In this document: positions 4,815 through 62,330 of the stretch, in pieces
How positions within the stretch are numbered: position 1 is the first letter of the stretch
Layout: each line of letters starts with the position of its first letter
From: Eledone cirrhosa
Taxonomy: Eukaryota
Assembly (NCBI GenBank): GCA_964016885.1
Contig: OZ024757.1
Location: forward strand, 23,622,001 to 23,686,000
Length of the DNA: 64,000 nucleotides
Direction: 5' to 3'
Position numbers and translations under genes: made by a program
The notes under the pieces: generated by a model
Told to the model about the DNA's origin: nothing
The model's input: the letters and a program-made list of their open reading frames with translations, nothing else
The model's database searches: none

Positions 4815-4875
4815 TTTCATTATACATATTTCAGGGATAACAAATTAAATTATGGTATGCTTTCATCAGACAAAA
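4815..4875 (-). ncRNA. Decayed hammerhead ribozyme
   Basis: Minus strand: TTTTGT CTGATGA ...TTGTTATCCCT GAAA TATGTATA ATGAAA; helix II has several mismatches. Confidence 0.55.
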
Positions 4876-5183
4876 TACAATATATAACAGTTTTACAAAT
4901 AAGCTTTGACGTACCCTATTAAAATGCAACCATTATTTTTGGAAGCCAATATATATATATATACACACACACACATATCTTATGTATGTGTACAATCCTA
5001 TCAAAAAAGAGAGAGTAGAGATTAGTTTGTGAGAATTAAATGCCAGTAGCAAGGAGGGCAGTGTGCTCAATGCATATAGGATGCAAGAGAAGCATTTAGA
5101 GAGAGTAAAACAAATATAAGCCAAGCATTAAATATATAGGCAGAGCTTAAATATCAAAGTTATAGTTTAATATCTATGCTCTA

Positions 5184-5235
<52 letters not shown>

Positions 5236-5382
5236 GGGCTGGTTTAGGTTATTTGTTGGAGATTTCTTCATAGAAGCCTTATTCTTATAGCCTGGCCTAT
5301 TCGATTTTTTATATGGTTAATTATGCTAATTGGGAGAGGAAATGGTATATATTTTATCTGGTGATTCTATAGACATGTTTTA

Positions 5383-5418
<36 letters not shown>

Positions 5419-5420
5419 AA

Positions 5421-5469
5421 GCTTCTACAGGACTAGAACTGTTTATTTCGTGAGAAATCATCAGGAAGC
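5421..5469 (-). ncRNA. Hammerhead ribozyme with a G12-to-U core mutation
   Basis: Minus strand: GCTTC CTGATGA TTTC-tcac-GAAA TAAA CAG-ttctagtc-CTG TA GAAGC. All three helices pair; the core GAAA reads TAAA. Confidence 0.7.
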
Positions 5470-5597
5470 TCAGGGGCTTCCTGATGAAGCTTTTCTATAT
5501 TAAAACATTTATACTCTGCTATGTATTGAGTACCTTACTTACTGTGGTTATCCCCGATTCAACCCGGAATGACATATATATATATATGTATATATGT

Positions 5598-6180
5598 ATC
5601 ATCATCATCATCATCATCGTTTAACGTCCCTGTTCCACGCTTGCATGGGTTTGGACGGGGGTAGTCCCACTTGAGGCAAGAGTGGTTGTCTTGCTCGCAT
5701 AGGACTGTCTGGCGGGTTTTCTACGGCTGGATGCTCTTCCTAACACCAACCACATTTACAGTGTGGGGCTGGGAGGTTTTTACCGTGTTGCCTACACGGC
5801 CACATTTACAGCGTGGACTGTCTGGCGGGTTTTCTACAGCTGGATGCCCTTCCTAACACCAACCACATTTACAGTGTGGGGCTGGGAGGTTTTTACCGTG
5901 TTGCCTACACGGCCACATTACAGCATGGACTGTCTGGCGGGTTTTCTACAGCTGGATGCCCTTCCTAACACCAACCACATTTACAGTGTGGGGCTGGGAG
6001 GTTTTTACCGTGTTGCCTACACGGCCACATTACAGCGTGGACTGATATATATATATATACACACAGTCCTATACGAGTGAGACACGGTCACATGACCAAT
6101 TTTGCCTCAAATGGGACAATTCCCGTCTAACCCGTGCTAGTGTGGAAGATAGACATTAAACAATGATGATGATGATGGCA
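5598..6180 (-). mobile_element. SINE-A-related subfamily with a triplicated internal segment of about 115 bp
   Basis: Near-identical sequence at 22683-22885, 28450-28710 and 32640-32990 (opposite strand). Confidence 0.7.
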
Positions 6181-6809
6181 TATCTGTGTATAACTATAGT
6201 TATGGGTTGTTTGTCAGTTAAAGCACTTAATGCTGTTACGAGGTTCCATCTCATTGGTGTTTGAATGTGTTCTGTGCTTATGAAAGCATATCTGAGGAGA
6301 TATCAGAGTAGTGTTGGGCCCCAACCATTATGATCAATATCAAAACAATTGTCATATGCAATAAAGTTCATTTATGGTACTTTTTTTTATCAACCTCAAA
6401 ATGATGAAAGGCAAAGCAATCTATCCGACATTCGAAATAACTCTGCCAAAACACCATCTATGATATAATACATATTCTGAAATTAAATCTTAGAATTATT
6501 TTGAATTAGAGCACCTACCCAGAATGTTTGTAAGCCAAACTAACCCCCTCTTCCAAGCACTAAAGCTACAGCAGAAAGCTGGGATGAATACCCAAAAGCA
6601 TTCTAATCCGAAGTTCTAATGACTGCCAATTCACTGCCAGTTTTAGTATAATTAATGAACATAAATTAAGTTTAGGATACTGGAGAGAAAAGCCTGATGC
6701 TAACAATAAGTAAGGCATACAGTGGTATATCTGATTTAGAGGCTTATTCTGTCTATGAGAAAATCCCTATTTTTTTCTCCCACATTATATATTGAAGACA
6801 ATAACCATT

Positions 6810-6859
<50 letters not shown>

Positions 6860-7014
6860 CTCATATACACATATATATACATATGTACATATATATACAC
6901 ACACATATATATACTCATATACACATATATATACATGTGTACATATATATACACACACACACATATATATATATATACTCATATACACATATATATACAT
7001 ATGTACATATATAT

Positions 7015-7049
<35 letters not shown>

Positions 7050-7717
7050 CTCATATACTTATATACACACATATATATACATATGTACATATATATAGAT
7101 ATATAGATAGATAGATAGATACACATACATACATATATACATACATCCTCTGTTAGAATACAATAGCTGTTGTTCCTACATTTGGAATGTAATAATTAGA
7201 CCTAATTTTATTTCAACAGCAACAGTATCTCATTGATGGTGTTGGTGTTGGTGGTGGTGGTGGTGGTGGTGGTGGTGGTGTTGGTGGTGGTGTTGGTGGT
7301 GGTTGGGGCTATTCTTATGAATAGTGACAACTGAATCAATTCTACAGAAATGGGATGACTGTATACCTACCAAATCTTTGCGTATTAACTGAAGCAAATG
7401 TTTTATAGCGAGAAACTATTTTCACTGCTGACAACAATTGTATTAAGGAGGTTGTGAGTGTGTAGGAGTAAGGAGATAAAAAAAAAAAAGCATGACTGTT
7501 GTTGATGTAATAGATGTAACAGCCAATTATTGCAAACCAATTTACCTATGTAAAGCAATTGATATTGTAAAGGCAAACTAAACATACACGTGTGTGAAGT
7601 CACAAGCATAAACTGTAGGGACTCAGTTAAATATTTTCTTCCAATATATATATGTGTGTGTGTGTGTGTGTGAGTGTGTGTGCGTATATATATATATATA
7701 TATATGAGGCATATATT

Positions 7718-8063
7718 GGAGGCACATGGCTTAGTGGTTAGAGCATTGGCCTTGCAATCGAAAGGTTGTGAGTTCAATTCTCAGACCGGGTGATGTGTTG
7801 TTTCCTTGAGCAAGCCACTTTATTTCACATTGCTCCAGTGTACTCAGCTGTAGAAATGAGATGATAGGGACTGGGGTCCCTAACATTCCACTGTAAAGTG
7901 GACGTGTAGGTGCGACGGCAAAAAAGCACCCAGCACTCACTGTAAGTGAGGTTGGTGTTAGGAAGGGCATCCAGCTGTAGAAATCAAGCCAGAATCAGTT
8001 CCCGTCCCACCCTTGCAAGCAGGGAAAAGCAGACGTAAAATGATGATGATGATGATGATGATG
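7718..8063 (+). mobile_element. tRNA-derived SINE-A with an RTE-like 3' tail
   Basis: Head GGAGGCACATGGCTTAGTGGTTAGAGC...GAGTTCAATTC; tail CCCACCCTTGCAAGCAGGGAAAAG...(GAT)n. Other copies at 1398-1712(-), 29840-30180(+), 31981-32363(-), 36400-36712(-) and 42603-43180(-). Confidence 0.85.
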
Positions 8064-8448
8064 ATATATATATATATATATATATACATATATAGTTTAT
8101 GTTTACTTTGCCTTTGCTTGGCACCACAATCAGGATTATACCTATCTCTATACCCACTCTGTATTTCACCATGCATTGAGTACTCCCATGATTTATGGTG
8201 TCTTCGGTCTTAGCACCACATGGCTTAATGGTTAGAGAGTTGGATTCACACTCATGAGGGTTGTGAGTCCGAATCCCAGACCAGCTGATGCATTATGTCC
8301 TTGAGCAAGACACTATATTCCATGTTGCTCTTCCTGCCAGGAGTGGCAACCAGTAGATAGTATCAGTAATGCAAAGACCAATGGAAACATTGCTTCCTCG
8401 GTTCCATTTCATGAGTACCACAAATGAGGTTTGGGATCTTGTCAATAA

Positions 8449-8488
<40 letters not shown>

Positions 8489-8495
8489 ACACACA

Positions 8496-8550
<55 letters not shown>

Positions 8551-9031
8551 TGGAAGAAAATATTTAACTGAGTCCCTACAGTTTATGCTTGTGACTTCAC
8601 ACACGTGTATGTTTAGTTTGCCTTTACAATATCAATTGCTTTACATAGGTAAATTGGTTTGCAATAATTGGCTGTTACATCTATTACATCAACAACAGTC
8701 ATGCTTTTTTTTTTTTTATCTCCTTACTCCTACACACTCACAACCTCCTTAATACAATTGTTGTCAGCAGTGAAAATAGTTTCTCGCTATAAAACATTTG
8801 CTTCAGTTAATACGCAAAGATTTGGTAGGCATACAGTCATCCCATTTCTGTAGAATTGATTCAGTTGTCACTATTCATAAGAACCCCAACCACCACCAAC
8901 ACCACCACCACCAATATATATATATATAGGAAAGAGTCCTGACTCTTTTCCTATTGCCCACTCTACTACCCTAAGTATTGAGTACTCTGATGCGTTATGG
9001 TCCACCTGGCTCCTTACAACACTTCCTTCGT

Positions 9032-9062
<31 letters not shown>

Positions 9063-9072
9063 AAAACATAAC

Positions 9073-9146
9073 TATTTCATCTGATGAACGAGCCAGACAT
9101 TTCTGTAAGGATCATCTAGTTTCCTGAAACCTTTGGTAATGGAATA
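9073..9146 (+). ncRNA. Type I hammerhead ribozyme (same family as 62002), helix II partly decayed
   Basis: TATTTCAT CTGATGA ... GAAA CCTTTGGTA ATGGAATA; 8-bp helix I. Confidence 0.7.
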
Positions 9147-9598
9147 ATTACATTGTGTTGTTTATTATGTAATTAAATATATATAAATATATATATATAT
9201 ACACACACACACATACACACATATATAAACTTTTAAAAAATCAATTAAGAGAGGACAAGACAATTAATGGAAACAAGGCAAAATGAAAAACAATTTTTTA
9301 AGGGGAAACCTTAAAAAAGTATTTTTTTAAAATAAAAATACAAACGAAGGAGGCAGGACTCCATGGTCATCAGCCATTGAGATGGACTTGGGCAGTTTCG
9401 TCCCCTACCAAAAGTACTGCTGGTCCACCTGTGGTCATAGCTTATGACATATCTCCATGGTCATCAGCCATTGAGATGGACTTGGGCAGTTTCGTCCCCT
9501 ACCAAAAGTACTGCTGGTCCACCTGTGGTCATAGCTTATGACATAAGCCAAACACTGTCCAGTGGAATAAGAGACGAGAGACAAAACATATGTATATA

Positions 9599-16832: not shown

Positions 16833-16974
16833 CCCACTGGAGATGGTTGCTTCGAGCAGGACCTGTTGGAAGGAGTGTTTCAGGACTCTGCCACCCCACA
16901 ATCCTGTCAGGAAGAAGTGGGTGAGGGTGGAGGTGGCGGAGGAGGAGCAGGAAAAGGAAGATGTAGACAAATAA

Positions 16975-17943
16975 GAATTGTTTCTAATTTTGGCAAAAAG
17001 CCACCAATTATCCCAGTGCATTACTGGTACTTTATTTTATCGACCACCGTAAGGATTTAAAGGCAAAGTTAACCTTGGCAGGATTTTAACTCAGACTATA
17101 AAGGGATGTAACTCTATGCTGAAAAACATGGCGTCTGACCCTCTACCGATACTGCCAATCCACCACCCTATGAAGACAAATATTAATGATAATAATAATA
17201 ATTGTTTCTACTTTTGGCACAAGGCCAGCAATTTCCCAGTGCATTACTGGTACTTTATTTTATCGACCACCGTAAGGATTTAAAGGCAAAGTTAACCTTG
17301 GCAGGATTTTAACTCAGACTATAAAGGGATGTAACTCTATGCTGAAAAACATGGCGTCTGACCCTCTACCGATACTGCCAATCCACCACCCTATGAAGAC
17401 AAATATTAATGATAATAATAATAATTGTTTCTACTTTTGGCACAAGGCCAGCAATTTCCCAGTGCATTACTGGTACTTTATTTTATCGACCACCGTAAGG
17501 ATTTAAAGGCAAAGTTAACCTTGGCAGGATTTTAACTCAGACTATAAAGGGATGTAACTCTATGCTGAAAAACATGGCGTCTGACCCTCTACCGATACTG
17601 CCAATCCACCACCCTATGAAGACAAATATTAATGATAATAATAATAATTGTTTCTACTTTTGGCACAAGGCCAGCAATTTCCCAGTGCATTACTGGTACT
17701 TTATTTTATCGACCACCGTAAGGATTTAAAGGCAAAGTTAACCTTGGCAGGATTTTAACTCAGACTATAAAGGGGTGTAACTCTATGCTGAAAAACATGG
17801 CGTCTGACCCTCTACCGATACTGCCAATCCACCACCCTATGAAGACAAATATTAATGATAATAATAATAATTGTTTCTACTTTTGGCACAAGGCCAGCAA
17901 TTTCCCAGTGTATTACTGGTACTTTATTTTATCAACCCCATAA
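16975..17943 (-). repeat. Tandem array of SINE-B (unit about 223 bp, about 4.3 near-identical copies)
   Basis: cccagtgcattactgg recurs at about 17012, 17235, 17458 and 17682, with a 1-mismatch copy at about 17904. Confidence 0.9.
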
Positions 17944-19146
17944 GAAGAAGAAGAAAATGAAGAAAATGATGATGGCGAAGAAGATGAAGAAAAGATGATG
18001 ATGATGATGATGAAGTAAAGATGATGATGAAGAAAAGATGATGATGAAGAAGAAAAGATGATGATGATGATGAAAAGATGATGAAGAAAAGATAATGATG
18101 ATGAAGAAAAGATGATGATGATGAAGAAGAAATGATGATGATGATGAAGAAGAAAAGATGATGATGAAGAAAAGATGATGATGATGATGATGAAGTAAAG
18201 ATGATGATGAAGAAAAGATGATGATGAAGAAGAAAAGATGATGATGATGATGAAAAGATGATGAAGAAGAAAAGATGATGATGAAGAAAAGATGATGATG
18301 ATGATGAAGTAAAGATGATGATGATGAAGAAAAGATGATGATGAAGAAATTATGATGATGAAGAAATGATGATGATGATGAAATGATGATGATGATGAAG
18401 AAAAGATGATGATGATGAAGAAAAGATGATGATGATGAAGAAATGATGATGATGATGAAGAAATGATGATGATGAAGAAATGATGATGATGATGAAGAAA
18501 AGATGATGATGATGAAGAAAAGATGATGATGATGAAGAAAAGATGATGATGATGAAGAAAAGATGATGATGATGAAGAAATGATGATGATGATGAAGAAA
18601 TGATGATGATGATGAAGAAATGATGATGATGAAGAAATGATGATGATGATGAAGAAAAGATGATGATGATGAGGAAGAAAAGATGATGATGATGATGAAG
18701 AAATGATGATGATGAAGAAATGATGATGAAGAAAATATGATGATGAAGAAAAGATGATGATGATGAAATGATGATGATGATGAAGAAATGATGATGATGA
18801 TGAAGAAATGATGATGATGATGAAGAAATGATGATGATGATGAAGAAAAGATGATGATGATGAAGAAAAGATGATGATGATGAAGAAATGATGATGATGA
18901 AGAAATGATGATGAAGAAAAGATGATGATGAAGAAAAGATGATGATGATGAAATGATGATGATGATGAAGAAATTATGATGATGATGAAGTAAAGATGAT
19001 GATGATGATGAAGTAAAGAAGATGATAATGATGAAAATATGATAACGATGAAGAAAAGATAATGACGATGAAGAAAAGATAATGATGATGAAGAAAAGAT
19101 AATGATGGCGAAGAACTGATGATGAAGAAGAAAAGAAGGTGATGAC
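17944..19146. repeat. (GAT/GAA)n purine-rich cryptic repeat
   Basis: Runs of GAT interrupted by GAAGAAAA. Confidence 0.95.
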
Positions 19147-29297: not shown

Positions 29298-29324
29298 TAT
29301 ATATTCTTAAATAAACATTTCTAG

Positions 29325-29378
29325 CTGATGAACGATATCAAACGTTTCTGTTAGAATCGTCTGACTTCGTGAAACCTT
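29325..29378 (+). ncRNA. Partial hammerhead (same family as 9073 and 62002), cleavage site and helix I 3' strand deleted
   Basis: CTGATGA ACGA...TCGT GAAACCTT, then jumps directly to the downstream gtgttg motif. Confidence 0.55.
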
Positions 29379-29539
29379 GTGTTGTTTATTACATATATAT
29401 ATATATATATTATATGTAGGAGGTGAGTTTTATTGTAGCACAATATAGCAATGCAAATATCGGATAAGTAGCACTCAACAGTTTATAGGACTGGAGTATA
29501 AATAATATAAAATCAAAAGATGGTTAAAAGAGTTCCATG

Positions 29540-29610
29540 TATTTTATTATGCACATTTCAAAAACAAATATCATCATGGGATGATATTTGCGTTCTCATC
29601 AGATAAAATA
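29540..29610 (-). ncRNA. Type I hammerhead ribozyme with a long helix II
   Basis: Minus strand: TATTTTAT CTGATGA GAACGCAAATATCATC-ccat-GATGATATTTGTTTTT GAAA TGTGCATA ATAAAATA. Confidence 0.82.
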
Positions 29611-31284: not shown

Positions 31285-31403
31285 CTGGTGCCTTGAGAAA
31301 GCAACACCAAAACTCAGCAAGGATAATATCAAAGAATCAAAACAACAGAAATAAGCTTTATTCCATGGTTATGTTTTTCTGGGTTTTTTTAATTCAAATT
31401 CTA

Positions 31404-42516: not shown

Positions 42517-44425
42517 GTTCAAATATTCATTTATTATGGCTAGGTAATGAGTCTTGTTACTCTGCAGTTTCACCTGGACACCTGCAGGATCATCGGACAA
42601 GATCATCATCATCATCATCATTTTACGTCTGCTTGCAAGGGTGGGACGGGAACTGATTCTGGCTTGATTTCTACAGCTGGATGCCCTTCCTAACACCAAC
42701 CTCATTTACAGTGAGTGCTGGGTGCTTTTTCGTGGCGCCTACACGTCCACTTTACAGTGTGGGCTGGGTGCTTTTTTTGCCGTGGCACCTCCACGACCAC
42801 CTTGCGGTGGGGGGTGTGGGGGCATATTGTCTATATATATATGCTAATTCAAAATATTAACAAAAATAGACATTTGTGTGATCAAGTATATTTTATTATA
42901 CATATTTCAGTATGGGCTGGGTGCTTTTTTGTTGTGACACCTACGCATCAACTTTACAGTGTGGGCTGGGTGCTTTTTTTGCCATGACACCTCCACGACC
43001 ACTTTACAGTGGAATGATATGGACCCCAGTCCCTATCATCTCATTTCTACAGCTGAGTAAACTGGAGTAATGTGAAATAAAGTGTCTTGTTCAAGGAAAC
43101 AACACATCACCCGGTCTGAGAGTTGAACTCACCTCTCGATTTCAAGGCCAATGCTCTAACCACTAAGCCATGTACCTCCATGGATATATATATATATATA
43201 TATACAAACATACATACACACACATATATGTGTGTGTATGTATGTTTGCATATATACACACACACAAACATACACACATACATACATATATACACACAAA
43301 GTGTAAACACCCAAATCTTCCTATCCTATTACCACGATGCTGTAATGTGTATGATATGTTGGTATGATCTTTTCTTGTCACTTCTTACTAACTAAATTCA
43401 GTTCTCCTGTTCAATATTCCTCTGTAGTGGTTCAATTGCAGCAGGTTTTCTAAGACCTGATTCAGACCATCATACCTCTGTTCATTTCTGTCGACTTGGC
43501 ACAACAACAAGTTGCAGTCTTTTGTGTTTTTTTTCACTTTTTTTTTTTTTTTTTTTTTTTGCATGTGTTTATTGACTCCCAAAAAGATGAAAGGAAAAGT
43601 CGATACGGCAGAATTGAAATTCAGATGTAAATTAGAGTGAATACATCAATGAATTTAGTCCAGTAGATAGTAGAAATTAGTCATCTATCTGACTGGCAAA
43701 TCTTTACTTTTACTAACACTCTACAGACAGTAGTATACAGACGTGACCTTTCGTGTTCCCTGTTTCATAAAATATCTGTCTATATGCTATGGTATGTTAG
43801 AGAAAGTAATACACATTAAAACACAGGTTTTATTGCTCTTCATTCGGTGGATTGGCAGTATCGGTAGAGGGTCGGACGCCATGCTTTCTAGCATAGTTAC
43901 GTCCCTTTACGATCTGAGTTCAAATCCCGCCAAGGTTGACTTTGCCTTTCATCCTTACGGGGTTGATAAAATAAAAGTACCAGTAATGCACTGGGTAATT
44001 GCTGGCCTTGTGCCTAAAGTAGAAACAATTATTATATACATATAAGGGCGGTGGATTGACAGTATCGGTAGAGGGTCGGACGCCATGCTTTGACGCATAG
44101 AGTTACGGCCCTTGCCATTCTGAGTTCAAATCCTGCCGAGGTTAACTTTGCCTTTCATCCTTACAGGGTCGATAAAATAAAGTACCAGATAAAATAAAGT
44201 ACCACTGGGATAATTGCTGGCCTTGTGCCAAAAATAGAAACAATTATTCTATACATATAAAGGGTGGTGGAATGGCAGTATTGGAAGAACATCGGACAAC
44301 GTGCTTTACAGCATTCCTTTATGTTCTGAATTCAAATCCTACCGAGATTAACTTTGCTTTTCATATAACAGGTTCGATGAAATAAAGTACCAGTAACACA
44401 CTGGAGTAGATTTAACCCTTTAGCA

Positions 44426-45228
44426 TTTACATTACTCTATATATACTATTGTATTTTCACAGTAAAGGCTTTACCTCACATAATTATCTCACATAAAATT
44501 TACATTACTCTATATATACTATTGTATTTTCACAGTAAAGGCTTTATCTCACATAATTATCTCACATAAAATTTACATTACTCTATATATACTATTGTAT
44601 TTTCACAGTAAAGGCTTTACCTCACATAATTATCTCACATAAAATTTACATTACTCTATATATACTATTGTATTTTCACAGTAAAGGCTTTACCTCACAT
44701 AATTATCTCACATAAAATTTACATTACTCTATATATACTATTGTATTTTCACAGTAAAGGCTTTACCTCACATAATTATCTCACATAAAATTTACATTAC
44801 TCTATATATACTATTGTATTTTCACAGTAAAGGCTTTACCTCACATAATTATCTCACATAAAATTTACATTACTCTATATATACTATTGTATTTTCACAG
44901 TAAAGGCTTTACCTCACATAATTATCTCACATAAAATTTACATTACTCTATATATACTATTGTATTTTCACAGTAAAGGCTTTATCTCACATAATTATCT
45001 CACATAACATTTACATTACTCTATATATACTATTGTATTTTCACAGTAAAGGCTTTATCTCACATAATTATCTCACATAACATTTACATTACTCTATATA
45101 TACTATTGTATTTTCACAGTAAAGGCTTTATCTCACATAATTATCTCACATAACATTTACATTACTCTATATATACTATTGTATTTTCACAGTAAAGGCT
45201 TTACCTCACATAATATCTCACATAACAT
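44426..45228 (+). repeat. 73-bp tandem satellite, left part (about 11 units)
   Basis: Unit ttacattactctatatatactattgtattttcacagtaaaggctttacctcacataattatctcacataaaat. Confidence 0.95.
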
Positions 45229-45439
45229 CTCGTATACGAGAGACGTGTGTTGACGTGTGTGAACAAGCTCGGCTACCGAGTCGGATTTACTTACTCAAAA
45301 AGTGAGTTTTGATTAATTTTTTTATACTGTAATATACGTTAACCCCTTGCCTTGGTCGTCAAACTTTGAGTTTATTTATTTTCGCCCCTTTTTGGGGCGA
45401 ATTTTCCAGTTAAAAATTTATTACGGCAAACTAATAGAA

Positions 45440-47182
45440 ATGGACGGAATTTTCACATCTCATCCTAACGTGAAAGCCACGCCCCCTAAGAAAGGTGATA
45501 CAGAGAAGCTAGAAGCACAAGGCTCTAAGTCTTCCCTCCTCACTTCTGCAAAAGAAACATGGAACACGGAATTAAAAGAAAAATTTGTAGAAATGGGTGA
45601 AAACCCAGAAAGTCACATAAACGCAGACAAAAACATCAACGACAATAACAGCAATAGTCACAACACCAACCAAGGAAAAAATAACGATAACACCAAACAA
45701 AGTGAACCCACTACTGGTACCTCCTTTGCACAGGCGGTCCGGAAAACACAAACCTGCAAGCAACTGGACATTACAACTCTGAGAGAAAAGATGAAGGAAG
45801 CGAAACAGTATGTAACTTTCAAAGAAGGAGGAGACTTCACAATCACCTCCCCACAAGAAATCAAAAGAGACACGACGCTAAGAACGATATCTTTCAGAAC
45901 AATTTCCAACATAACAAGGAAACCAACTCAATTATCCCAAAAAGAGATTGAGCTGGTCCTAAAAAATGTGTGGAGTGATATATCGTTCATACAAAAAGGG
46001 CCACTCTATGGGAATATAACGGTCCTAATGAAGGATCAATTGACGGCCAGGAAATACTCTGTGGCACCAATTGTTTCCAAGATATATACATTTTTCCCCA
46101 CATATTTAGGGAAAAGAACGCAGAAGATAAGGGTCTCCGGAATCCGGCCAAATGCATGCATTTCCTGGGTACTAACAGGATTTTTAGAAGACGAGGACGG
46201 AATCCTCTCAGTAGGAGAAGTCACCACAGACGTTTTCGGCGGTTTGAGCGTGGAGGTTCTGGTCCAAATGAGACCAGAACGAATCGCTAGAATACCACAG
46301 AGGGTGTCCCTCGATGGAGAAACATTTATATATATTTCAGCCGAGGGTAGGAGGCCCATATGTTACTACTGTTCAAGCAGGGGTCATCTAAGGGCTGCTT
46401 GTCCTCAATTGACAAAAAAAAAGGCTCTTTTGCCTACACCCCACACACCACCACCGCCACCACCACCACCACCACCACCTCCACCACCACCACCACAACA
46501 ACAACAAAAACAACAGGGAAAAATAACACAAGACACGGCCCCACCCAAAACAACTCCCAAAACACACACAAATACAACAAAACCCCAAAATACACCACTA
46601 CCTGACAGCACGGACGAGGACCCAGCGGAAACGGCACCTAGTGACGAAGAGGGGGAACCCTTCCAACCTGTAAAAAGGAAAAAAAGAAAGCACCACTCGA
46701 ACATAAACGAAACAAACACACAACCACCAACAAAAACAAAACAAACAGAACAAACAAAATCCGCCCCACCCCAAAACATAACACATACAACAAAACGTAA
46801 GCACACACAAGAACAACAAACAAACACAACACAAATAAAACAGTATACATACATTAACACAAATAACAAAGAACTAGTAAAAACAATACACAAAGACCCT
46901 TTGGTGGAAACTGAAGGGCAATTCTTTGCAAGCGCGGCCAACAAACCGCATTTAAAAATGATAAGACTCCCAATGGACACCTATGCAAAACTAAGAGAGA
47001 ACTTTCCTGAGGACGTGGGGAAAACATGTACTCGACCCTATAACCGCGTCCTCTTGAAACGTTTCCCCACCCACACCTCACCAAACACCCCCACTCCACC
47101 ACAGAACAACACCCCACCAAACAACCCCTCCAATACGCCCATGGATATTGTGCAACCTGCTCCTCAGGAGCCGAACAGGTAG
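45440..47182 (+). CDS. LINE ORF1, gag-like nucleic-acid-binding protein (about 580 aa from the first ATG)
   Basis: CX2CX4HX4C knuckle CYYCSSRGHLRAAC, poly-Pro/Gln linker and a basic KRKKRK patch. The track starts at TTG 45347; the first ATG is at 45440. Confidence 0.88.
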   Translation: MDGIFTSHPNVKATPPKKGDTEKLEAQGSKSSLLTSAKETWNTELKEKFVEMGENPESHINADKNINDNNSNSHNTNQGKNNDNTKQSEPTTGTSFAQAVRKTQTCKQLDITTLREKMKEAKQYVTFKEGGDFTITSPQEIKRDTTLRTISFRTISNITRKPTQLSQKEIELVLKNVWSDISFIQKGPLYGNITVLMKDQLTARKYSVAPIVSKIYTFFPTYLGKRTQKIRVSGIRPNACISWVLTGFLEDEDGILSVGEVTTDVFGGLSVEVLVQMRPERIARIPQRVSLDGETFIYISAEGRRPICYYCSSRGHLRAACPQLTKKKALLPTPHTPPPPPPPPPPPPPPPPQQQQKQQGKITQDTAPPKTTPKTHTNTTKPQNTPLPDSTDEDPAETAPSDEEGEPFQPVKRKKRKHHSNINETNTQPPTKTKQTEQTKSAPPQNITHTTKRKHTQEQQTNTTQIKQYTYINTNNKELVKTIHKDPLVETEGQFFASAANKPHLKMIRLPMDTYAKLRENFPEDVGKTCTRPYNRVLLKRFPTHTSPNTPTPPQNNTPPNNPSNTPMDIVQPAPQEPNR

Positions 47183-47203
47183 GTCCTTCCTCTTTTAACC
47201 AAC

Positions 47204-50200
47204 ATGGCTGATATAAGAGTTGGGTTTCTGAATGTACGTGGCCTGGGACTGTCTTGGAAACAAGGCAAACTTTTAAACGATCTCAGGTCACATAGAATGG
47301 ATGTAATGGCTATTTGCGAGTCCAGGATCAGCAGCGAGCACCAACTGGCGCCCCTCTTCGACGACTTTGAGATCTTCGCATCTCTCTGTCAACCGGGGGG
47401 TGGGGGTGGAGTTGTCGTTCTGCTGCGAAAACACCTGGGCCTCGCCATACAGAAGGTGCACCTGGACCCGGAGGGTCGACTGGTGGTTTTAGACGTCGGC
47501 AGTAGTGAAAGTGGAGCCCTTAGACTAATAGCTGTGTACGCCCCTTTTTGGGCAGCGCGGCCGGAATACTTCCAACGTCTGGAAACTTTTCTGGGAACGT
47601 CCCGCTCCTTGCTTTTAGTGGGGGACTGGAATGGTATCCTGGATGCACGTTGGGACTATGTAGGGGCATGTGCCAATAGAGGGGGGTGTAAAAGCCTCAA
47701 AAGGTTAATCGGCCGATTTGACCTGGCCGATAGATATCGACTAGATTTTCCGACTGTACCACTATGGACGTGGACCAATCGCAGTGGAACATCTAGGTCG
47801 TACCTAGATAGGGTCCTAGTTAGAGAGAACGATAGGGACACATTTAGCTGTCCAAAAATGTTCATGGTTGACTATTCGGATCACAAGTTAGTGACCTGCA
47901 TAGCCAACCTTGATAGAACCCATAGACAGGGACCCGGTTACTGGAAGCTGAACTTGTCCTTACCGAGAAGCAAAGCTTACAGTAAACGGATTAGCACGTT
48001 AGTTAAGCAGAATTTGACAGGGGCAATTGTCAACAACAGGTGGTGGAGCTCTCTTAAGAGAGCAATTAGAATAGAATCGATAGGTTTTAGTCAGGAATTA
48101 GCAAGGGATAGGAACAAGACGGAAAGGGAATTAGTAGATAGAGTAGAAGAGGCGATTAGGAGTGGCAATGTAGCCGGCGTGCTGGCATCAAGAATGGCCT
48201 TAGACCAGTTCTTTGAGGTGAAGCATGAAGGCTGCGTTGTCAGGAGTAAAATACGTGCTCTGGGTAATGAGGGAGCCAAAGCTGTAAGCTGGGCCCGAGT
48301 GACAGAGGCAAAAAGTGGGAACAAGTCCACGATTCGGTCTTTGAAGGACCAGGATGGGCGTGTGATCCTTGAACCTGGGCAGATGTGTGCGGCCTTTCAG
48401 CGGCACTTTGCACGACTGTTCGAGAGGGGCGGCGCGCCGGGTGAGACTATGGATTTCAATCCATACCTCGACGGTCTGCCGCGCCTCTCGGACGCGGAGG
48501 CGAAGTCCTGCGAAAGGACGATTTCAGCTGCTGAGATAGGGGCGGCGCTGAGCCAATGCGGCAAACGCAAATCCCCGGGTCTCGATGGTCTACCATACGA
48601 GCTATATGTAGCGATGCCGGACTTGTTCTCCGATATCCTCGAAGCGGTCTACTGCAACTGGCAGCAGAACGGGAGAATTCCCAGTTCTGTGACCAAGGGC
48701 GTAGTTACGCTGGTGAGGAAGGATGAGAACAAGGGGGATGACATAAGTAACTTCAGGCCCATAACTCTGCTAAATACAGAGTTAAAGATTTTGGCCAAGG
48801 TGTTAGCGAAGAGGTTGGCGCTTGTCGTTGGAAACCTGGTGGGAGAAGCGCAGACATGCGCAATCCCGTCCAGGTCCATTCACGACAATCTCCACCTTAT
48901 GCGATACATCATAGAGAGGGTAGGGAATGAACCCGGCTTTGGTGGGGCCCTGATCAACTTGGATCAATCTAAAGCTTTCGATAGGGTTGACCATCGTTAC
49001 CTGGATGCGGTGCTCGCGGCGGCAGGCTTCGGACCCGTTTTCAGGGGTTGGATTGCTGCGATGCACAGCAGCAACGTCTGCTCAAGGGTCAAGGTGAACG
49101 GCCACCTCTCGGAGCCGTTCCAAATCATGCGATCCATCCGACAGGGATGCCCTCTCTCCTCCCTACTGTATGTGCTGGCTCTTGAGCCACTACTGCGGAA
49201 GTTGGAGCGGTTGCAGGGCATCCCTTTGGAACCGGGATTGCAGAAAGCGGCGTCGGCCTACGCCGATGACGTGACAGTAATGGTGTCGAAAACCTCGCAA
49301 ATCGGTGAGATCGGCACCTTACTGGAGGAATATGAAAGGTTTACAGGAGCCAAGCTGAACCGGGACAAGTCCGTCGGTTTGCAACTCGGAACATGGAGAG
49401 GCAAACCGATGCCCTCCAACGACGTCGTCGGACGCTGGACGGAGGGCCCGGTGAAGCTGCTTGGGGTCTGGTTCGGACCAGACCTCCAGGTGGAGAAAAA
49501 CTGGAACGAGGTAACGGCCAGGGTGTTTGCACTCACCCAGAAGTGGGCCCAGTGCAAACTATCCCTGAAAGGTCGAGCGGAGGTGGCGAATACTTATATA
49601 GCATCCGTCATCTACTACCGCTTGACCGTCGTGCCTTGCCCAGTGAAAAGACTCGCCAAAATGGAGTGCGCGCTGTTCCAATTTCTTTGGAACAAGCGGA
49701 CCCCTTTGGTGAGGAGATCCATCTGCTGTCAACACCCTTCGAAAGGAGGGCTGGGGATGCCGTGGCTACAGATGCGTAAACACGCATTAAGGCTACGGCA
49801 CCTCCAGGTATTCCTCACCGGTCAACCGGTGTGGGCCCCGTTTGTGAGGCGAGCCTTTCCCAGACTCGTCTCGCTCACCGAGCTGCAATCCTGGGTCAAG
49901 CAAAGACCGAGAAAAGTGGGCGACTGGCACATTGAATGTGCCCAGGCGCTCACGGCCCTCTGGAAAGCGGACCCGGCAATCAGTGGAGACTCCACCTCGA
50001 CATTTTATAGAGGGTTGGTACGCAGCAGGTGCGACGATGCTCTCGGAGAAGCTCTAGGCATGGAGGAAGATGAACTGGCCAGTCTGTTCGGTAGGACGTT
50101 TGGCCCTGGACCGATGGACAACTTCCAAAAGTCCCTGGCTTGGCAGTGCTACCGAGGGGCTCTACCCGTTCGAGACAAGCTCCACAGGCATGGGAGCCTG

Positions 50201-50641
50201 GGTAGAGATCCTTTGAATAAGATCTGTCCGAGATGCGTGCATGATGACGAAACCGTTGCGCACGCATTCGTACACTGCCCAGGCATTGCTGACCTGTGGG
50301 GCTATGTGGAACGACTACTGTCGAGGGTGGGACCAATCCGGTTGACCACCGAGTCCATTGTCACGATCAAACCGCCTCCCCCTTTCAAAAACGAAGGAGA
50401 GGCGGTTTTTCTCTGTGTGGTAGCCATGGCTAAAGAAGTTGTATGGTGGACGAGGCTGAAAGGGCTGAGGTCAGACACCTTTCTCTCCGGCCAACAACTG
50501 GTCCCCTTTTTCAAATACCATTTTAAAAGAAGGATCAGAATGGAGAGAGAGGTGCTCTACCCCAGCAAGTTTTATGAAAGGTGGGTGAAAGTAGGGAGAA
50601 TGGCCAGAGTGAATGGGTCTTCTCTCTATATCAGCCTGTAG
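47204..50641 (+). CDS. LINE ORF2: APE endonuclease, reverse transcriptase and C-terminal Cys/His finger (1145 aa)
   Basis: Endonuclease motifs NVRG, VYAP, GDWN, LDRVLV, SDH. RT motifs KSPGLDG, RPITLLN, DQSKAFDRVDH, RQGCPLS, YADD. C-terminal CPRC...HAFVHC. GGLG and WKLN motifs are typical of L1/Tx1. Confidence 0.97.
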   Translation: MADIRVGFLNVRGLGLSWKQGKLLNDLRSHRMDVMAICESRISSEHQLAPLFDDFEIFASLCQPGGGGGVVVLLRKHLGLAIQKVHLDPEGRLVVLDVGSSESGALRLIAVYAPFWAARPEYFQRLETFLGTSRSLLLVGDWNGILDARWDYVGACANRGGCKSLKRLIGRFDLADRYRLDFPTVPLWTWTNRSGTSRSYLDRVLVRENDRDTFSCPKMFMVDYSDHKLVTCIANLDRTHRQGPGYWKLNLSLPRSKAYSKRISTLVKQNLTGAIVNNRWWSSLKRAIRIESIGFSQELARDRNKTERELVDRVEEAIRSGNVAGVLASRMALDQFFEVKHEGCVVRSKIRALGNEGAKAVSWARVTEAKSGNKSTIRSLKDQDGRVILEPGQMCAAFQRHFARLFERGGAPGETMDFNPYLDGLPRLSDAEAKSCERTISAAEIGAALSQCGKRKSPGLDGLPYELYVAMPDLFSDILEAVYCNWQQNGRIPSSVTKGVVTLVRKDENKGDDISNFRPITLLNTELKILAKVLAKRLALVVGNLVGEAQTCAIPSRSIHDNLHLMRYIIERVGNEPGFGGALINLDQSKAFDRVDHRYLDAVLAAAGFGPVFRGWIAAMHSSNVCSRVKVNGHLSEPFQIMRSIRQGCPLSSLLYVLALEPLLRKLERLQGIPLEPGLQKAASAYADDVTVMVSKTSQIGEIGTLLEEYERFTGAKLNRDKSVGLQLGTWRGKPMPSNDVVGRWTEGPVKLLGVWFGPDLQVEKNWNEVTARVFALTQKWAQCKLSLKGRAEVANTYIASVIYYRLTVVPCPVKRLAKMECALFQFLWNKRTPLVRRSICCQHPSKGGLGMPWLQMRKHALRLRHLQVFLTGQPVWAPFVRRAFPRLVSLTELQSWVKQRPRKVGDWHIECAQALTALWKADPAISGDSTSTFYRGLVRSRCDDALGEALGMEEDELASLFGRTFGPGPMDNFQKSLAWQCYRGALPVRDKLHRHGSLGRDPLNKICPRCVHDDETVAHAFVHCPGIADLWGYVERLLSRVGPIRLTTESIVTIKPPPPFKNEGEAVFLCVVAMAKEVVWWTRLKGLRSDTFLSGQQLVPFFKYHFKRRIRMEREVLYPSKFYERWVKVGRMARVNGSSLYISL

Positions 50642-50878: not shown

Positions 50879-51880
50879 ACTCTATATATACTATTGTATT
50901 TTCACAGTAAAGGCTTTACCTCACATAATTATCTCACATAACATTTACATTACTCTATATATACTATTGTATTTTCACAGTAAAGGCTTTATCTCACATA
51001 ATTATCTCACATAAAATTTACATTACTCTATATATACTATTGTATTTTCACAGTAAAGGCTTTACCTCACATAATTATCTCACATAACATTTACATTACT
51101 CTATATATACTATTGTATTTTCACAGTAAAGGCTTTATCTCACATAATTATCTCACATAACATTTACATTACTCTATATATACTATTGTATTTTCACAGT
51201 AAAGGCTTTATCTCACATAATTATCTCACATAACATTTACATTACTCTATATATACTATTGTATTTTCACAGTAAAGGCTTTATCTCACATAATTATCTC
51301 ACATAACATTTACATTACTCTATATATACTATTGTATTTTCACAGTAAAGGCTTTACCTCACATAATTATCTCACATAACATTTACATTACTCTATATAT
51401 ACTATTGTATTTTCACAGTAAAGGCTTTATCTCACATAATTATCTCACATAAAATTTACATTACTCTATATATACTATTGTATTTTCACAGTAAAGGCTT
51501 TATCTCACATAATTATCTCACATAACATTTACATTACTCTATATATACTATTGTATTTTCACAGTAAAGGCTTTACCTCACATAATTATCTCACATAAAA
51601 TTTACATTACTCTATATATACTATTGTATTTTCACAGTAAAGGCTTTATCTCACATAATTATCTCACAACATTTACATTACTCTATATATACTATTGTAT
51701 TTTCACAGTAAAGGCTTTATCTCACATAATTATCTCACATAACATTTACATTACTCTATATATACTATTGTATTTTCACAGTAAAGGCTTTATCCCACAT
51801 ATCTCACATAACATTTACATTACTCTATATATACTATTGTATTTTCACAGTAAAGGCTTTATCCCACATATCTCACATAA
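50879..51880 (+). repeat. 73-bp tandem satellite, right part (about 14 units)
   Basis: The same unit resumes immediately after the LINE 3' end. Confidence 0.95.
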
Positions 51881-52137
51881 TATCGAATCTATGAGATTTT
51901 GATATTATTTATTTTGAGAACAATACCTTAAGTTGGTTTGAACAGAAAAATGTGTGAAAATTCTGGCTGGATACGACCAGTTTAAATACTAAAGGGTTAA
52001 TTAACTTTCCCTTCCTCTAAAATTGTTGGCCTTGTGCCTAAATCAGAAACCCTTATTCTATACACACAGAGTAGAAATTATTCATCTATCTGGCTGTCAA
52101 ATCTTCACTTTTACTAACACACTGCATCTACAAGTAC

Positions 52138-52254
52138 ACTTACAGCCATATCACGTTGAAAGCACCAGTTCTCGTCCACTCACAGACAACAACAACATAG
52201 AGCCTTGTTAGTACTTAGATGGGTGACCAGTTGGGAAACCTAGGTGCTGTAAGC
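52138..52254 (+). pseudogene. 5S rRNA-derived sequence (pseudogene or SINE3 head)
   Basis: CTTACAGCCATATCACGTTGAAAGCACCAGTTCTCGTCC...TTAGTACTTAGATGGGTGACC...TGGGAA...GGTGCTGTAAGC follows metazoan 5S over about 117 nt. Box A is decayed and no oligo-T terminator follows directly. Confidence 0.85.
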
Positions 52255-52896
52255 AGCATTAAGTTTTTAATGGTGGTGCCCCAGCATGGTCTCAGAGTGA
52301 CAATAAAAAAAAAAGAGTGAAACCTAGGTGCTGTAAGCAGCATTAAGTTTTTAATGGTGGTGCCCCAGCATGGTCTCAGAGTGACAAAAAAAAAAAAAAG
52401 AGTGGCAGAATCGGCAGAGCGTCGGGCAATATACTTTGCAGCATCAAGTTATATCCTTGTATGTTCTGAGTTCAAGTTCCACCAAGGTTAGCTTTGCATT
52501 CTTCCTTACGGAGTCAATAAAATAAAGTACCCATTATGCACTGGGCCGATTTAATTGACTTTCTCCTTTCCTAAAATTGTTGGCCTTGTGCCTAAATCAG
52601 AAACCATTATTCTATCCATAGATAGTAAAAATTACTCATGTATTTGACTGTCAAATCTTTACTTTTACTAACATATTACAGACACTAATACACAAATGTA
52701 GTGTATTCTTCCACTGTCTCTTCTTGCACAATTAAAATAGTTCTTGCTTCTTTAATCTAACAGTTTTTGTACCATCCACCCACCCACTAAATCTACCCAA
52801 TGTACCTGACACTAGAAATAGACCTCCCTAGAAATAATAAATCCACAGCGAAACAGGTGTATTTGACTGATGAAAATGTAAATTTAACCAAATTTT

Positions 52897-54307
52897 GTAG
52901 AGTGGTCGTGCTGGTGACATGATGAAAAAGTACCCAGTCCAACCTGTCAGCACCCAGTCCACCCTGTAGAGTGGTCATGCTGGTGACATGATGAAAAAGT
53001 ACCCAGTCCAATCTGTCAGCACTCAGTCCACCCTGTAGAGTGGTCATGCTGGTGACATGATGAAAAAGTACCCAGTCCAACCTGTCAGCACCCAGTCCAC
53101 CCTGTAGAGTGGTCATGCTGGTGACATGATGAAAAAGTACCTAGTCCAATCTGTCAGCACCCAGTCCACCCTGGAGAGTGGTCATGCTGGTGACATGATG
53201 AAAAAGTACCCAGTCCAACCTGTCAGCACCCAGTCCACCCTGTAGAGTGGTCATGCTGGTGGCATGATGAAAAAGTATCCAGCCCAACCTGTCAGCACCC
53301 AGTCCACCCTGTAGAGTGGTCATGCTGGTGGCATGATGAAAAAGTACCCAGTCCAACCTGTCAGCACCCAGTCCACCCTGTAGAGTGGTCATGCTGGTGA
53401 CATGATGAAAAAGTACCCAGTCCAACCTGTCAGCACCCAGTCCACCCTGTAGAGTGGTCATGCTGGTGACATGATGAAAAAGTATCCAGCCCAATCTGTC
53501 AGCACCCAGTCCACCCTGTAGAGTGGTCATGCTGGTGACATGATGAAAAAGTATCCAGCCCAATCTGTCAGCACCCAGTCCACCCTGGAGAGTGGTCATG
53601 CTGGTGACATGATGAAAAAGTACCCAGTCCAATCTGTCAGCACCCAGTCCACCCTGTAGAGTGGTCATGCTGGTGACATGATGAAAAAGTACCCAGTCCA
53701 ATCTGTCAGCACCCAGTCCACCCTGTAGAGTGGTCATGCTGGTGACATGATGAAAAAGTACCCAGTCCAACCTGTCAGCACCCAGTCCACCCTGTAGAGT
53801 GGTAGTGCTGGTGACATGATGAAAAAGTACCCAGTCCAACCTGTCAGCACCCAGTCCACCCTGTAGAGTGGTCATGCTGGTGACATGATGAAAAAGTATC
53901 CAGCCCAATCTGTCAGCACCCAGTCCACCCTGTAGAGTGGTCATGCTGGTGACATGATGAAAAAGTACCCAGCCCAATCTGTCAGCACCCAGTCCACCCT
54001 GTAGAGTGGTCATGCTGGTGACATGATGAAAAAGTACCCAGTCCAACCTGTCAGCACCCAGTCCACCCTGTAGAGTGGTCATGCTGGTGACATGATGAAA
54101 AAGTATCCAGCCCAATCTGTCAGCACCCAGTCCACCCTGTAGAGTGGTCATGCTGGTGGCATGATGAAAAAGTACCCAGTCCAACCTGTCAGCACCCAGT
54201 CCACCCTGTAGAGTGGTCATGCTGGTGACATGATGAAAAAGTACCCAGTCCAACCTGTCAGCACCCAGTCCACCCTGTAGAGTGGTCATGCTGGTGACAT
54301 GATGAAA
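52897..54307. repeat. 69-bp minisatellite (about 20 copies)
   Basis: Unit gtagagtggtcatgctggtgacatgatgaaaaagtacccagtccaacctgtcagcacccagtccaccct. Confidence 0.95.
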
Positions 54308-54429
54308 CATGGTGATATGAATGAAACAGTTCTAATCCTGTATAAGTTATATCTATATAAGATAAAGATATGTGTGTGTGAGTGAAGTAAACAGTAAAAC
54401 AACAAAGCAAACAATACAGTACAATGAAG

Positions 54430-60530: not shown

Positions 60531-60601
<71 letters not shown>

Positions 60602-61108
60602 TGTGTGTGTGTGTCTATATGTGTGTGTCTATGTGTGTGTGTGTGTCTGGTGGTAGCTAAGATACTGCCATAGGCGGTGGTATGTCGGTTGAGCACTATG
60701 CTCTTACAGAGCAGAGTATGATATGATAGAATAGAATAGAAAACGAAAAATCAGTGATGCATCTGAACTCAATTTATTGTGTGTTACAATTGTTTCACAG
60801 GCGGACAGCTCGAGGTGCGATCATTGTGTGGATCTATCTGATTCTGGACCCGCAGGTTCGACGGACACGTCTAATGATTTCGGAGCATATATATATATAT
60901 AATTTTAAGAAACATTTTCCTATATTCAGAACCAAATATAAACATTTTAACCATAATAGTTCGTACCAAACCATTATTTTTTTTTTTTTCAAAATTAAAT
61001 TTTTTAATGTCTACGATATTAATTTACAAATATTGTACGAATTCGTGAACAAAAGAACCCGCAGGTTCGACGGACACGTTTAATGATTTCGGAGCATATA
61101 TATATATA

Positions 61109-61157
<49 letters not shown>

Positions 61158-61448
61158 AAGAAACATTTTCCTATATTCAGAACCAAATATAAACATTTTA
61201 ACCATAATAGTTCGTACCAAACCATTATTTTTTTTTTTTTCAAAATTAAATTTTTTAATGTCTACGATATTAATTTACAAATATTGTACGAATTCGTGAA
61301 CAAAAGAAATTTATTGGTGGAATCTATAGACTTTATACACAGACAAATCGAAAGGAAAACCATCGATGAAACGTGTGTGTATTGGCCCAGACCATGTCAA
61401 ACTTAATAGCTATATATACATAGCACTCTTTTTTCCTTTACCTTTTCT

Positions 61449-61494
<46 letters not shown>

Positions 61495-61610
61495 CAAAAT
61501 ATTAATAAATTAAGACGTTCACATAATCAAAATATATGTTTTAATATTTTAATCTTTGGTTATATATATATATATATGTATGTATATATATATGTATGTA
61601 TATATAAATA

Positions 61611-61745
61611 CAATGAAATTCCGGCGTATAAAAAAATTGGTTGTAACGAAAAATTCTTTATAACGAGATCGACTGAAACAAATCGAGTGTTTGTTCGTTA
61701 TAAAAATTCGCTATAATGGTATTCGTTATAACGGAATTTTACCTG
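61611..61745. mobile_element. pogo/Tigger-like MITE, decayed
   Basis: CAATGAAATTCCG / CGGAATTTTACCTG ends with internal (T)ATAACG/CGTTATA subrepeats. Confidence 0.5.
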
Positions 61746-61778
61746 TTTATATATCTATATATTTATATATCTTTACCT

Positions 61779-61836
<58 letters not shown>

Positions 61837-61846
61837 TTACCTGTTT

Positions 61847-61906
<60 letters not shown>

Positions 61907-62001
61907 TAAGTATTTCCGAAGAAAAAGCAAAGGAAAAAAGAGTGCTCTATGTATAGAACAGAGCTATTTAATTAGAAAGTGAACAACACAATATATAACT
62001 A

Positions 62002-62069
62002 CTCCATTACCAAAGGTTTCAGGACCCCAGACAATATTAACATACGTCTGGATCGTTCATCAGACAGAG
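62002..62069 (-). ncRNA. Type I hammerhead ribozyme (GAAACCTTTGGTA family)
   Basis: Minus strand: CTCTGT CTGATGA ACGATCCAGAC...GTCTGGGGTCCT GAAA CCTTTGGTA ATGGAG; GUA site. Confidence 0.78.
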
Positions 62070-62149
62070 AGGTTAACCTCTCTAATATTGTCTAGGGTCC
62101 TGAAACCTTTGGTAATGGAGTAGCTGTATATTGTGTTGTTCACTTTCTA

Positions 62150-62218
<69 letters not shown>

Positions 62219-62269
62219 AAGATTGTTTTCCATGGTTATGTCACTATTTATAAAACAAATTTTGTATTT

Positions 62270-62330
62270 TTTTATCTGGTGAAAGAGCACCAAGATTGCC
62301 TGGGTCGCCCTTGAAATATATATAATAAAA
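62270..62330 (+). ncRNA. Hammerhead ribozyme with an A6-to-G core change
   Basis: TTTTAT CTGGTGA AAGAGCACCAAG...CTGGGTCGCCCTT GAAA TATATATA ATAAAA. Confidence 0.68.

Follow-up and report, generated by a model that had tools for sequence, protein, structure and literature searches.

A 64,000-nt stretch of the Eledone cirrhosa genome, hereafter the window, contains real hammerhead ribozyme motifs. Indeed, six sites show the full type I pattern in a descriptor search, several broken motifs lie besides, and the sites group by sequence into about six families (A to F), in agreement with the several families of type I hammerheads reported in a preliminary description. These short repeats are probably (about two chances in three) pseudo-LTR ends, either solo or 5'-truncated, of Penelope-like elements (PLEs) that bear an endonuclease and are encoded elsewhere in the genome, and their motifs are most likely new octopod members of the known class of PLE pseudo-LTR hammerheads.

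Hammerhead motifs in the window

The core CUG(A/G)UGA is present at all nine places where the preliminary description had located about nine hammerheads, the positions given there being the low end of helix I. Five cores lie on the minus strand (C3 at 4869, 5464, 29602, 31721 and 62063) and four on the plus strand (9081, 29325, 31409 and 62276). Only six of the nine are complete, with CUGANGA, GAAA and NUH intact in type I order. In particular, the core at 62276 reads CUGGUGA, an A6G change; the site first given as 5421 (C3 5464) lacks the true G12, as judged from aligned family copies, the GAAA after its core belonging to helix II; and 29325, rightly called partial from the start, has lost the NUH cleavage site and the 3' sides of helices III and I. 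Together with at least seven further fragments absent from the earlier account, the tally is thus six complete and three damaged motifs, with one complete motif per about 10 kb in this window. The features are as follows.

4773 to 4948, minus strand: family B copy (C3 4869, H17 4821), helix I of 8 bp extended by a distal stem, decayed helix II (3 of 5 pairs), tailless
5416 to 5575, no single strand: family E head-to-head element; minus arm, hammerhead without G12 (C3 5464, H17 5426); plus arm (from 5476), internal deletion and a tail
9061 to 9176, plus strand: family A copy beginning 20 nt ahead of the core, complete type I hammerhead (C3 9081, G12 9126, H17 9138), helix I of 8 bp, helix III of 3 bp plus UUU, (TA)n on both sides
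29305 to 29392, plus strand: family A copy (C3 29325) that has lost the cleavage site and the 3' arm; helix II keeps full pairing at its base (4 bp)
29520 to 29625, minus strand: family F hammerhead (C3 29602, H17 29548), helix I of 8 bp, long helix II, near-palindromic helix III; element limits approximate
31285 to 31505, plus strand: family C element (C3 31409, H17 31457), G10.1-C11.1, palindromic helix III
31556 to 31883, minus strand: family D element carrying a small hammerhead of canonical form (C3 31721, H17 31690, helix III AUGCAU), with a 27-bp inverted repeat at its ends (31556-31582 and 31857-31883)
33950 to 34047, minus strand: 3' half of family B, matching 4775-4833 at 95% and extended by about 38 nt of extra tail ahead of (TA)n
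42843 to 42910, minus strand: B-like 3' half adjoining SINE pieces
54320 to 54350, plus strand: family E 3' half
61415 to 61457, plus strand: isolated fragment of the family A tail (87% over 45 nt)
61908 to 62075, minus strand: family A main copy (C3 62063, H17 62008) with a 3' tail of about 57 nt (61908-61965)
62066 to 62083, no single strand: 18-bp perfect palindrome, the family A head-to-head junction
62076 to 62152, plus strand: inverted partial family A copy that lacks CUGAUGA as well as the helix II 5' strand, tailless; 69 nt of it are 96% complementary to the main copy
62217 to 62352, plus strand: family B copy (C3 62276, H17 62324) with CUGGUGA, palindromic helix III and extended helix I
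62640 to 62690, plus strand: 5' half-core CUGGUGA (62667) resembling family B; a second half-core lies at 5358
63010 to 63075, plus strand: family E 3' half with GAAA, helix III, NUH, 3' arm and start of the tail

The number of motifs exceeds that of shuffled sequence, the control that had been proposed for them. A strict descriptor found five matches against shuffle means of 0-0.015 (maximum 1 over 200 shuffles; three block sizes), and a looser one, which adds 4869, found six against a mean of 0.08 (maximum 2 over 100 shuffles). Relaxing the core to CUGNNGA gave eight matches against a mean of 0.31; the one at 5358 has a TA tract inside the motif and looks spurious. Two occurrences of CTGATGA (13313 and 42113) were dropped because the rest of the motif is absent, and the descriptor search of the window for a U3-A8 core variant gave no match.

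Chance matches in AT-rich, microsatellite-rich DNA would fit some of the other results. Indeed, the Rfam scan that had been suggested as a check failed to recover the motifs, no hammerhead family being among the 124 matches in the window at E<=1. The free minimum-energy fold mostly differs from the hammerhead fold (z -0.01 to -2.86), and five metagenome loci, all within long ORFs and without helix I or TA tracts, matched the family A pattern by chance; viral contigs gave no match to it. However, five to six motifs against 0-0.08 expected, a count unreached in 100-200 shuffles per setting, refute this explanation; the recurrence of the families and the conservation of the family A core in reads also speak against it, and its probability is negligible. 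The matches that Rfam did return in the window are only miRNA hits driven by microsatellites, SINE heads resembling tRNA and one 5S-like gene. A covariance model recovered its seven training sites; its additional hits, among them 62049, 5414, 29314 and 5345, are all weak (E 0.17-4.9).

Core and helix structure

Helix I measures 5-8 bp at all eight sites that keep both arms, helix II has four of five pairs at six sites, and helix III has 3-4 bp. Double-sided changes affect seven of eight helix I pairs across seven sequences, a figure that is partly circular as the sites were chosen for pairing. Among the eight sites, helix III is a perfect palindrome at three (31409, 31721 and 62276), near-palindromic at two (4869 and 29602) and a closed hairpin at three (family A, 3 bp plus UUU; family E, 4 bp plus a loop). 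The initial picture of minimal hammerheads with a palindromic helix III that work as dimers fits families B, C, D and F; it does not fit A and E with their closed hairpins. A G-C pair directly after A9 is found at two of the eight (31409 and 31721).

Family A in sequencing reads

Reads placed on family A identify it as a high-copy repeat. None of 12 core positions has a listed variant at a threshold of >=8%, compared with 16 of 36 helix II and loop positions (Fisher p=0.004) and 19 of 68 non-core positions overall (p=0.06), counts that refer to the listed rows, with four further rows aside, and to mapping that favours conserved stretches. At the free core position N7, U is replaced by C in 30-48% of reads. 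Hence, for family A alone, the core is conserved across homologues while N7 is free. A coding cause of the variation was rejected, as inspection by hand found no clear codon periodicity in the variant positions. A9 is mostly followed by C or A, next to a C.C mismatch; where helix II begins, the majority letters of the family yield a CC/CA mismatch.

The start of family A seems to be the 5' edge of helix I. Read depth falls at 62075, beyond which the sequence is heterogeneous, and all three core-bearing copies begin 12-21 nt before the core. Loose read ends past this edge agree only to 0.56-0.57; no single upstream PLE continuation is therefore seen, which favours a discrete short unit. At the other side, two 3' ends (61908 and 61965) both enter (TA)n in contigs of two read sets, and the 3' part is deeper than the core, about 20-fold in contigs and about 2-fold in RAD reads, as expected from 5' truncation. 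At least 11 strand-change joints were found among the 15 of 33 family A joints listed; nine of these 11 have one side inside the 5' arm of helix I, and in four each end falls within a helix I arm or at its edge.

Insertion anatomy and its interpretation

The setting among (TA)n tracts noted at the outset is confirmed (median distance 57 nt against 717, p=0.0014), and the loose ends of family A reads include (TA)n; target-site duplications are unreadable within such tracts. Families A, D and E contain head-to-head inverted partial copies, and a 3' tail is optional in A, B and E, being present on one copy or arm only. Inverted head-to-head copies together with an optional tail are published marks of PLE insertions, and point to PLEs as the source of these repeats.

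Inverted repeats at TA targets could also be left by MITE-like DNA elements, cut and pasted into TA and carrying an old ribozyme by chance, and the terminal inverted repeats of 27 bp in D and 69 bp in A fit such elements. However, the inversions are asymmetric, with internal deletions, their joints in family A are variable (at least 11 different ones listed), the tail occupies one arm only, and many copies lack an inverted arm (9081, 29325 and 4869), so that a cut-and-paste origin is very improbable.

A less likely but more serious alternative to PLE ends, in line with the non-autonomous retroelements proposed in the preliminary description, is that several or even all of the families are independent non-autonomous mini-elements, either SINE-like solo pseudo-LTRs (pLTRs) or non-LTR retrozyme monomers. 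Such elements would have their own transcription, might form circles once the hammerhead has cut, and would rely on PLE proteins for retrotransposition in trans. The common start of family A copies and the depth fall at 62075 speak for it. Moreover, the family D body (301 nt) is strongly structured (z -4.44; 0 of 100 shuffles) and its size is within the retrozyme monomer range given in the available part of PMC7229834, while retrozymes descend from PLE pLTRs and many are monomers, as far as the accessible part of bioRxiv 10.64898/2026.07.22.740005 goes. On the other hand, no hammerhead lies in a tandem array among the 73 TRF rows for this window, only one of the 15 of 33 family A joints listed runs back (by 43 nt) and none by a full unit, and the deeper 3' part of family A is as expected of 5'-truncated copies.

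Against the favoured reading, the repeats as ends of PLEs encoded elsewhere, it counts that the window, as already described, has no PLE ORF, the Pfam search giving no PLE reverse transcriptase or GIY-YIG piece in 141 translated frames (16 plus 125 of 167 candidates, the 42 left out being mostly SINE or repeat frames, some among the 16). The sole reverse transcriptase in the window is that of an APE-type LINE, whose best named match is from Argonauta hians (68%).

We infer the following cycle from the anatomy of the copies. A PLE GIY-YIG endonuclease would nick (TA)n, and the reverse transcriptase would start either about 40 or about 100 nt downstream of the position at which the ribozyme cuts, the two starts being proposed to account for the optional tail. 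Copying would proceed back through the uncleaved hammerhead and often halt close to the helix I 5' edge; there the nascent strand may fold back on itself and add an inverted partial copy. Selection would have kept the ribozyme in source elements. There its predicted task is cleavage of the PLE transcript, carried out as a dimer where helix III is palindromic and perhaps aided by protein; most inserted copies would later decay as passengers.

A bolder and doubtful proposal is that family A represents a 'ribozyme SINE', a discrete unit of 110/170 nt that would be the smallest type of PLE parasite, made of a hammerhead and a PLE priming tail and amplified to thousands of copies. Its 5' end would be set by the edge of helix I, whose self-complementarity would prime the fold-back behind PLE 5' inversions, and its core would be active despite the CC/CA mismatch between core and helix II, in which case it would be a new natural hammerhead variant.

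Significance

As the class is already known, the gain is incremental: PLE hammerheads are extended to octopods. Among the papers listed in a full-text literature search for 'hammerhead ribozyme' and 'octopus', none was an octopus hammerhead study by title or start of abstract. Extrapolating from one window, such genomes may hold very many unannotated, Rfam-invisible ribozyme-derived repeats. In addition, family A variants offer test cases for two questions about PLEs, namely the role of the hammerhead in their cycle and the priming of 5' inversions.

Comparison with known systems

In other cephalopods, the available passage of PMC6962438 gives 235 hammerhead_1 loci in the Rfam annotation of the giant squid, with no PLE link or element anatomy in that passage; unlike these loci, the window motifs escape Rfam models. 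In Octopus vulgaris, 190 PLE families account for 6.83% of the genome (PMC13282606). The word 'ribozyme' is absent from the text and supplement of the 2026 repeat annotation of this species. The O. vulgaris repeat library may already contain the window families.

Thousands of single, heterogeneous, multi-family hammerheads per animal genome, molluscs included, are described in the accessible part of PMC4209133 (Cervera and de la Pena 2014), with Lottia and Crassostrea as mollusc entries in its alignment and no cephalopod found in one of its supplement files. As far as that part goes, the window shares with these PLE hammerheads the type I topology, many heterogeneous families, mostly single dispersed motifs, neighbouring motifs in opposite orientation, flanks that are U-rich on the 5' side and AU-rich on the 3' side, a long helix II and, in some families, a small palindromic helix III. 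Their consensus has an absent or small palindromic helix III, unlike the closed non-palindromic one of families A and E. It also has G10.1-C11.1 and an unpaired H after A9; in the window G10.1-C11.1 occurs only in C and D, whereas helix II of A, B and F opens with A-U or G-U, A adding the adjoining C.C mismatch.

Animal non-LTR retrozymes, as portrayed in the same partial sources (PMC7229834; bioRxiv 10.64898/2026.07.22.740005), are likewise non-coding, low in GC and PLE-related, with a type I hammerhead, and element D resembles them in monomer size and strong folding; unlike them, the motifs form no tandem arrays in this window.

The anatomy of the copies is close to that of endonuclease-bearing PLE insertions. 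PLEs with an inverted pLTR, an 18-bp palindrome, a 31-bp optional tail and self-priming are reported in the available part of PMC3846280, and PMC11167929 describes a tail defined by two internal reverse transcriptase starts, AT-rich targets and insertion without need of cleavage. The tails here (about 57 nt in family A, longer in E) exceed the published 30-40 bp. Six DNA motifs from the families had no match in the supplement of PMC8557442, in which long sequence runs are incomplete. Neptune or Poseidon types are likelier sources than Naiad, since Naiads lack canonical hammerheads. Unlike Penelope/Poseidon, Neptune and Naiad insertions, the window copies are only 60-330 bp, with no ORF in the window; they share with them, to the extent that these partial sources (PMC3846280, PMC8557442, PMC11167929) document it, the (TA)n or AT-rich targets, the junction palindrome, the inverted 5'-truncated copy at the 5' end, internal deletions and an optional tail arising from two 3' ends.

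Hammerhead motifs and their families

Self-BLAST and alignments sort the hammerhead-bearing short repeats into six sequence families, bearing out the several families of the preliminary description.

Hammerhead-bearing repeats by family (sites are C3 positions of the core)
Family A: 9081 (+), 29325 (+), 62063 (-), the inverted arm of 62063 (+) and a tail fragment at 61415
Family B: 4869 (-), 62276 (+), a 3' half at 34047 (-) and probably another at 42908 (-)
Family C: 31409 (+), single member
Family D: 31721 (-), single member
Family E: 5464 (-), 63010 and 54324
Family F: 29602 (-), single member, resembling B around the core

Nine hammerhead places had been claimed and the 5' core is indeed present at 9/9, but 62276 departs from the full motif by A6G only, 5464 is missing G12, and 29325 is missing the cleavage site. 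In PMC3088659, a change at A6 (A6C) is reported to have left low activity. Five sites in the window match a type I descriptor that requires CUGANGA, at least 3/4 pairs in helix II, a 2-bp helix III, NUH and a helix I of at least 5 bp, versus 0-0.015 in shuffled sequence (three block sizes, 200 dinucleotide shuffles for each). A looser helix II rule gains 4869 and gives six sites versus 0.08 expected, and none of its 100 shuffles exceeded 2. An Rfam scan of the window returned 124 matches at E<=1, with no hammerhead among them.

The active hammerhead fold is mostly not what free folding yields. Constraining it costs 3.0-6.4 kcal/mol at five of the six sites folded, which do not include 4869 and 5464, and the far larger gap at 62063 is due to its inverted arm. 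The palindromic helix III proposed earlier holds, exactly or nearly so, for families B, C, D and F, while in A and E it is a closed hairpin. Position 6 of helix I in family A goes from U-A at 9081 to C-G at 62063, and helix I pairs are altered on both sides in 7/8 cases across seven sites; since these sites were chosen for pairing, such two-sided changes lend weak support.

Families C (31362-31375) and B (62227-62240) share an identical 14-mer, placed some 45-50 nt upstream of C3. T-rich or pyrimidine stretches ending in AG, similar to 3' splice sites, immediately precede either helix I or the core (29305-29324, 31380-31403, 62645-62666); in Penelope of D. virilis, the intron end coincides with the helix I 5' edge (PMC4209133).

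Genomic setting and element anatomy

The window has a GC content of 38% and is rich in microsatellites, including 105 (TA)n tracts, with tRNA-derived SINE-like repeats and satellites also abundant. The (TA)n setting described for the hammerheads is confirmed, as predicted cut sites lie a median of 57 nt from (TA)5+, compared with 717 nt when positions are random (n=9, p=0.0014). No hammerhead was found in the tandem arrays checked.

Other repeats in the window
45317-50641 (+): the single APE-RT LINE, seemingly intact, with two ORFs (ORF1 zinc-knuckle, ORF2 APE-RT-zf); best named relative from Argonauta hians, 68%, which makes an octopod host likely
44421-45228 and 50879-51883: 73-bp satellite on either side of this LINE, which is inserted in it
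52138-52255 (+): 5S rRNA match (69 bits versus a gathering score of 38), several pairs broken, 84-bp period duplication of the 3' part; a 5S gene, pseudogene or 5S-derived SINE head
7312-7652 / 8542-8883: inverted pair (342 bp, 99.4% identity) surrounding two SINE-like units; possibly a recent inversion or composite insertion
16970-17944: SINE-like dispersed repeat in a 223-bp tandem array (4.4 copies, 98%), short TA runs between
52896-54307: 69-bp satellite, 20.5 copies, CTGGTGA in most units, no hammerhead inside the unit; a 3' half of family E follows at 54320
8929-9031 and 8140-8210: short segments with the family E tail motif; a hairpin-like palindrome opens 8929, so these are probably very short truncated E-type insertions
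61606-61781: short element with inverted repeats, set in TA, MITE-like by eye

At 61908-62152, two family A copies stand head to head: a full one with its tail and, across an 18-bp palindrome, an inverted arm of 69 nt that has neither tail nor 5' core. The same build is found at 5416-5575, where the tail sits on the deleted arm. Element D has an inverted end of 27 bp and folds strongly (z -4.44), and the family B half at 34047 extends about 38 nt further 3' than 4869.

Family A across the genome

Positions 61900-62090 were compared with reads and contigs at 80% likeness in 4 of 23 runs, namely two contig sets that share a sample plus two sets of RAD reads, giving 3226, 3244, 2845 and 2607 aligned records. 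In one contig set, summed word depth, itself no copy number, fell from about 250,000 in the 3' part to 13,461 at the core, and the locus-specific bin had 12.5. This shows that family A is a high-copy repeat.

Among the variants listed (all but 4), none at 8% or above falls on C3, U4, G5, A6, G8, A9, G12-A15.1, U16.1, H17 or helix III, and 16 of 36 helix II and loop positions are variable (core versus these, p=0.004; core versus all non-core, p=0.06). N7 is C in 30-48% of records. The majority letters, C in 52-57% following A9 and A in 61-67% preceding G12, would together with a C.C pair give a 2x2 mismatch and then a helix II of about 10 bp, the variants being unphased.

Loose ends enter (TA)n before 61908 and likewise before 61965, which points to two 3' ends 57 nt apart. 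Among the 15 of 33 joints listed, 11 switch strand. Nine of these place one side within the helix I 5' arm (62064-62075), one of the nine probably being the present locus, and 4 place both sides in helix I arms or at their edge. Past 62075 the loose ends agree at only 0.56-0.57, thus no common upstream sequence is apparent.

Probable relationship to Penelope-like elements

As stated earlier, the window holds no Penelope-like element (PLE) ORF, none being present in 141 translated frames. The elements are probably (about 0.65) solo or truncated pseudo-LTR ends, which putative PLE enzymes encoded elsewhere in the genome would write; priming, fold-back and cleavage are likewise putative. The main alternative, rather less likely, is that they are free-standing non-autonomous units or retrozyme monomers, for which families A and D make the strongest case.

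Hammerheads of this kind are already known, and those of octopus appear to be undescribed: no description emerged from literature searches that included the available text of PMC13282606, PMC8967140 and PMC7229834, with subscription papers, Repbase, the O. vulgaris repeat library and one PMC4209133 supplement file outside their scope.

The reading as pseudo-LTR ends is favored by the match of each structural trait to published insertions of endonuclease-bearing (EN+) PLEs, by hammerhead dispersal and by octopus PLE abundance. An inverted 5'-truncated copy, a junction palindrome and an optional tail are common to these elements and EN+ PLE insertions (PMC3846280, PMC8557442), as are AT-rich targets (PMC11167929); in EN+ PLE insertion, uncleaved RNA serves as template and reverse transcription starts at two internal sites (PMC11167929). 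Single hammerheads of many families scattered through genomes, "probably related to truncated PLEs", form the main result of PMC4209133. In Octopus vulgaris, PLEs make up 6.83% of the genome and are abundant and recently active, with recent insertions in 30 Penelope families (PMC13282606).
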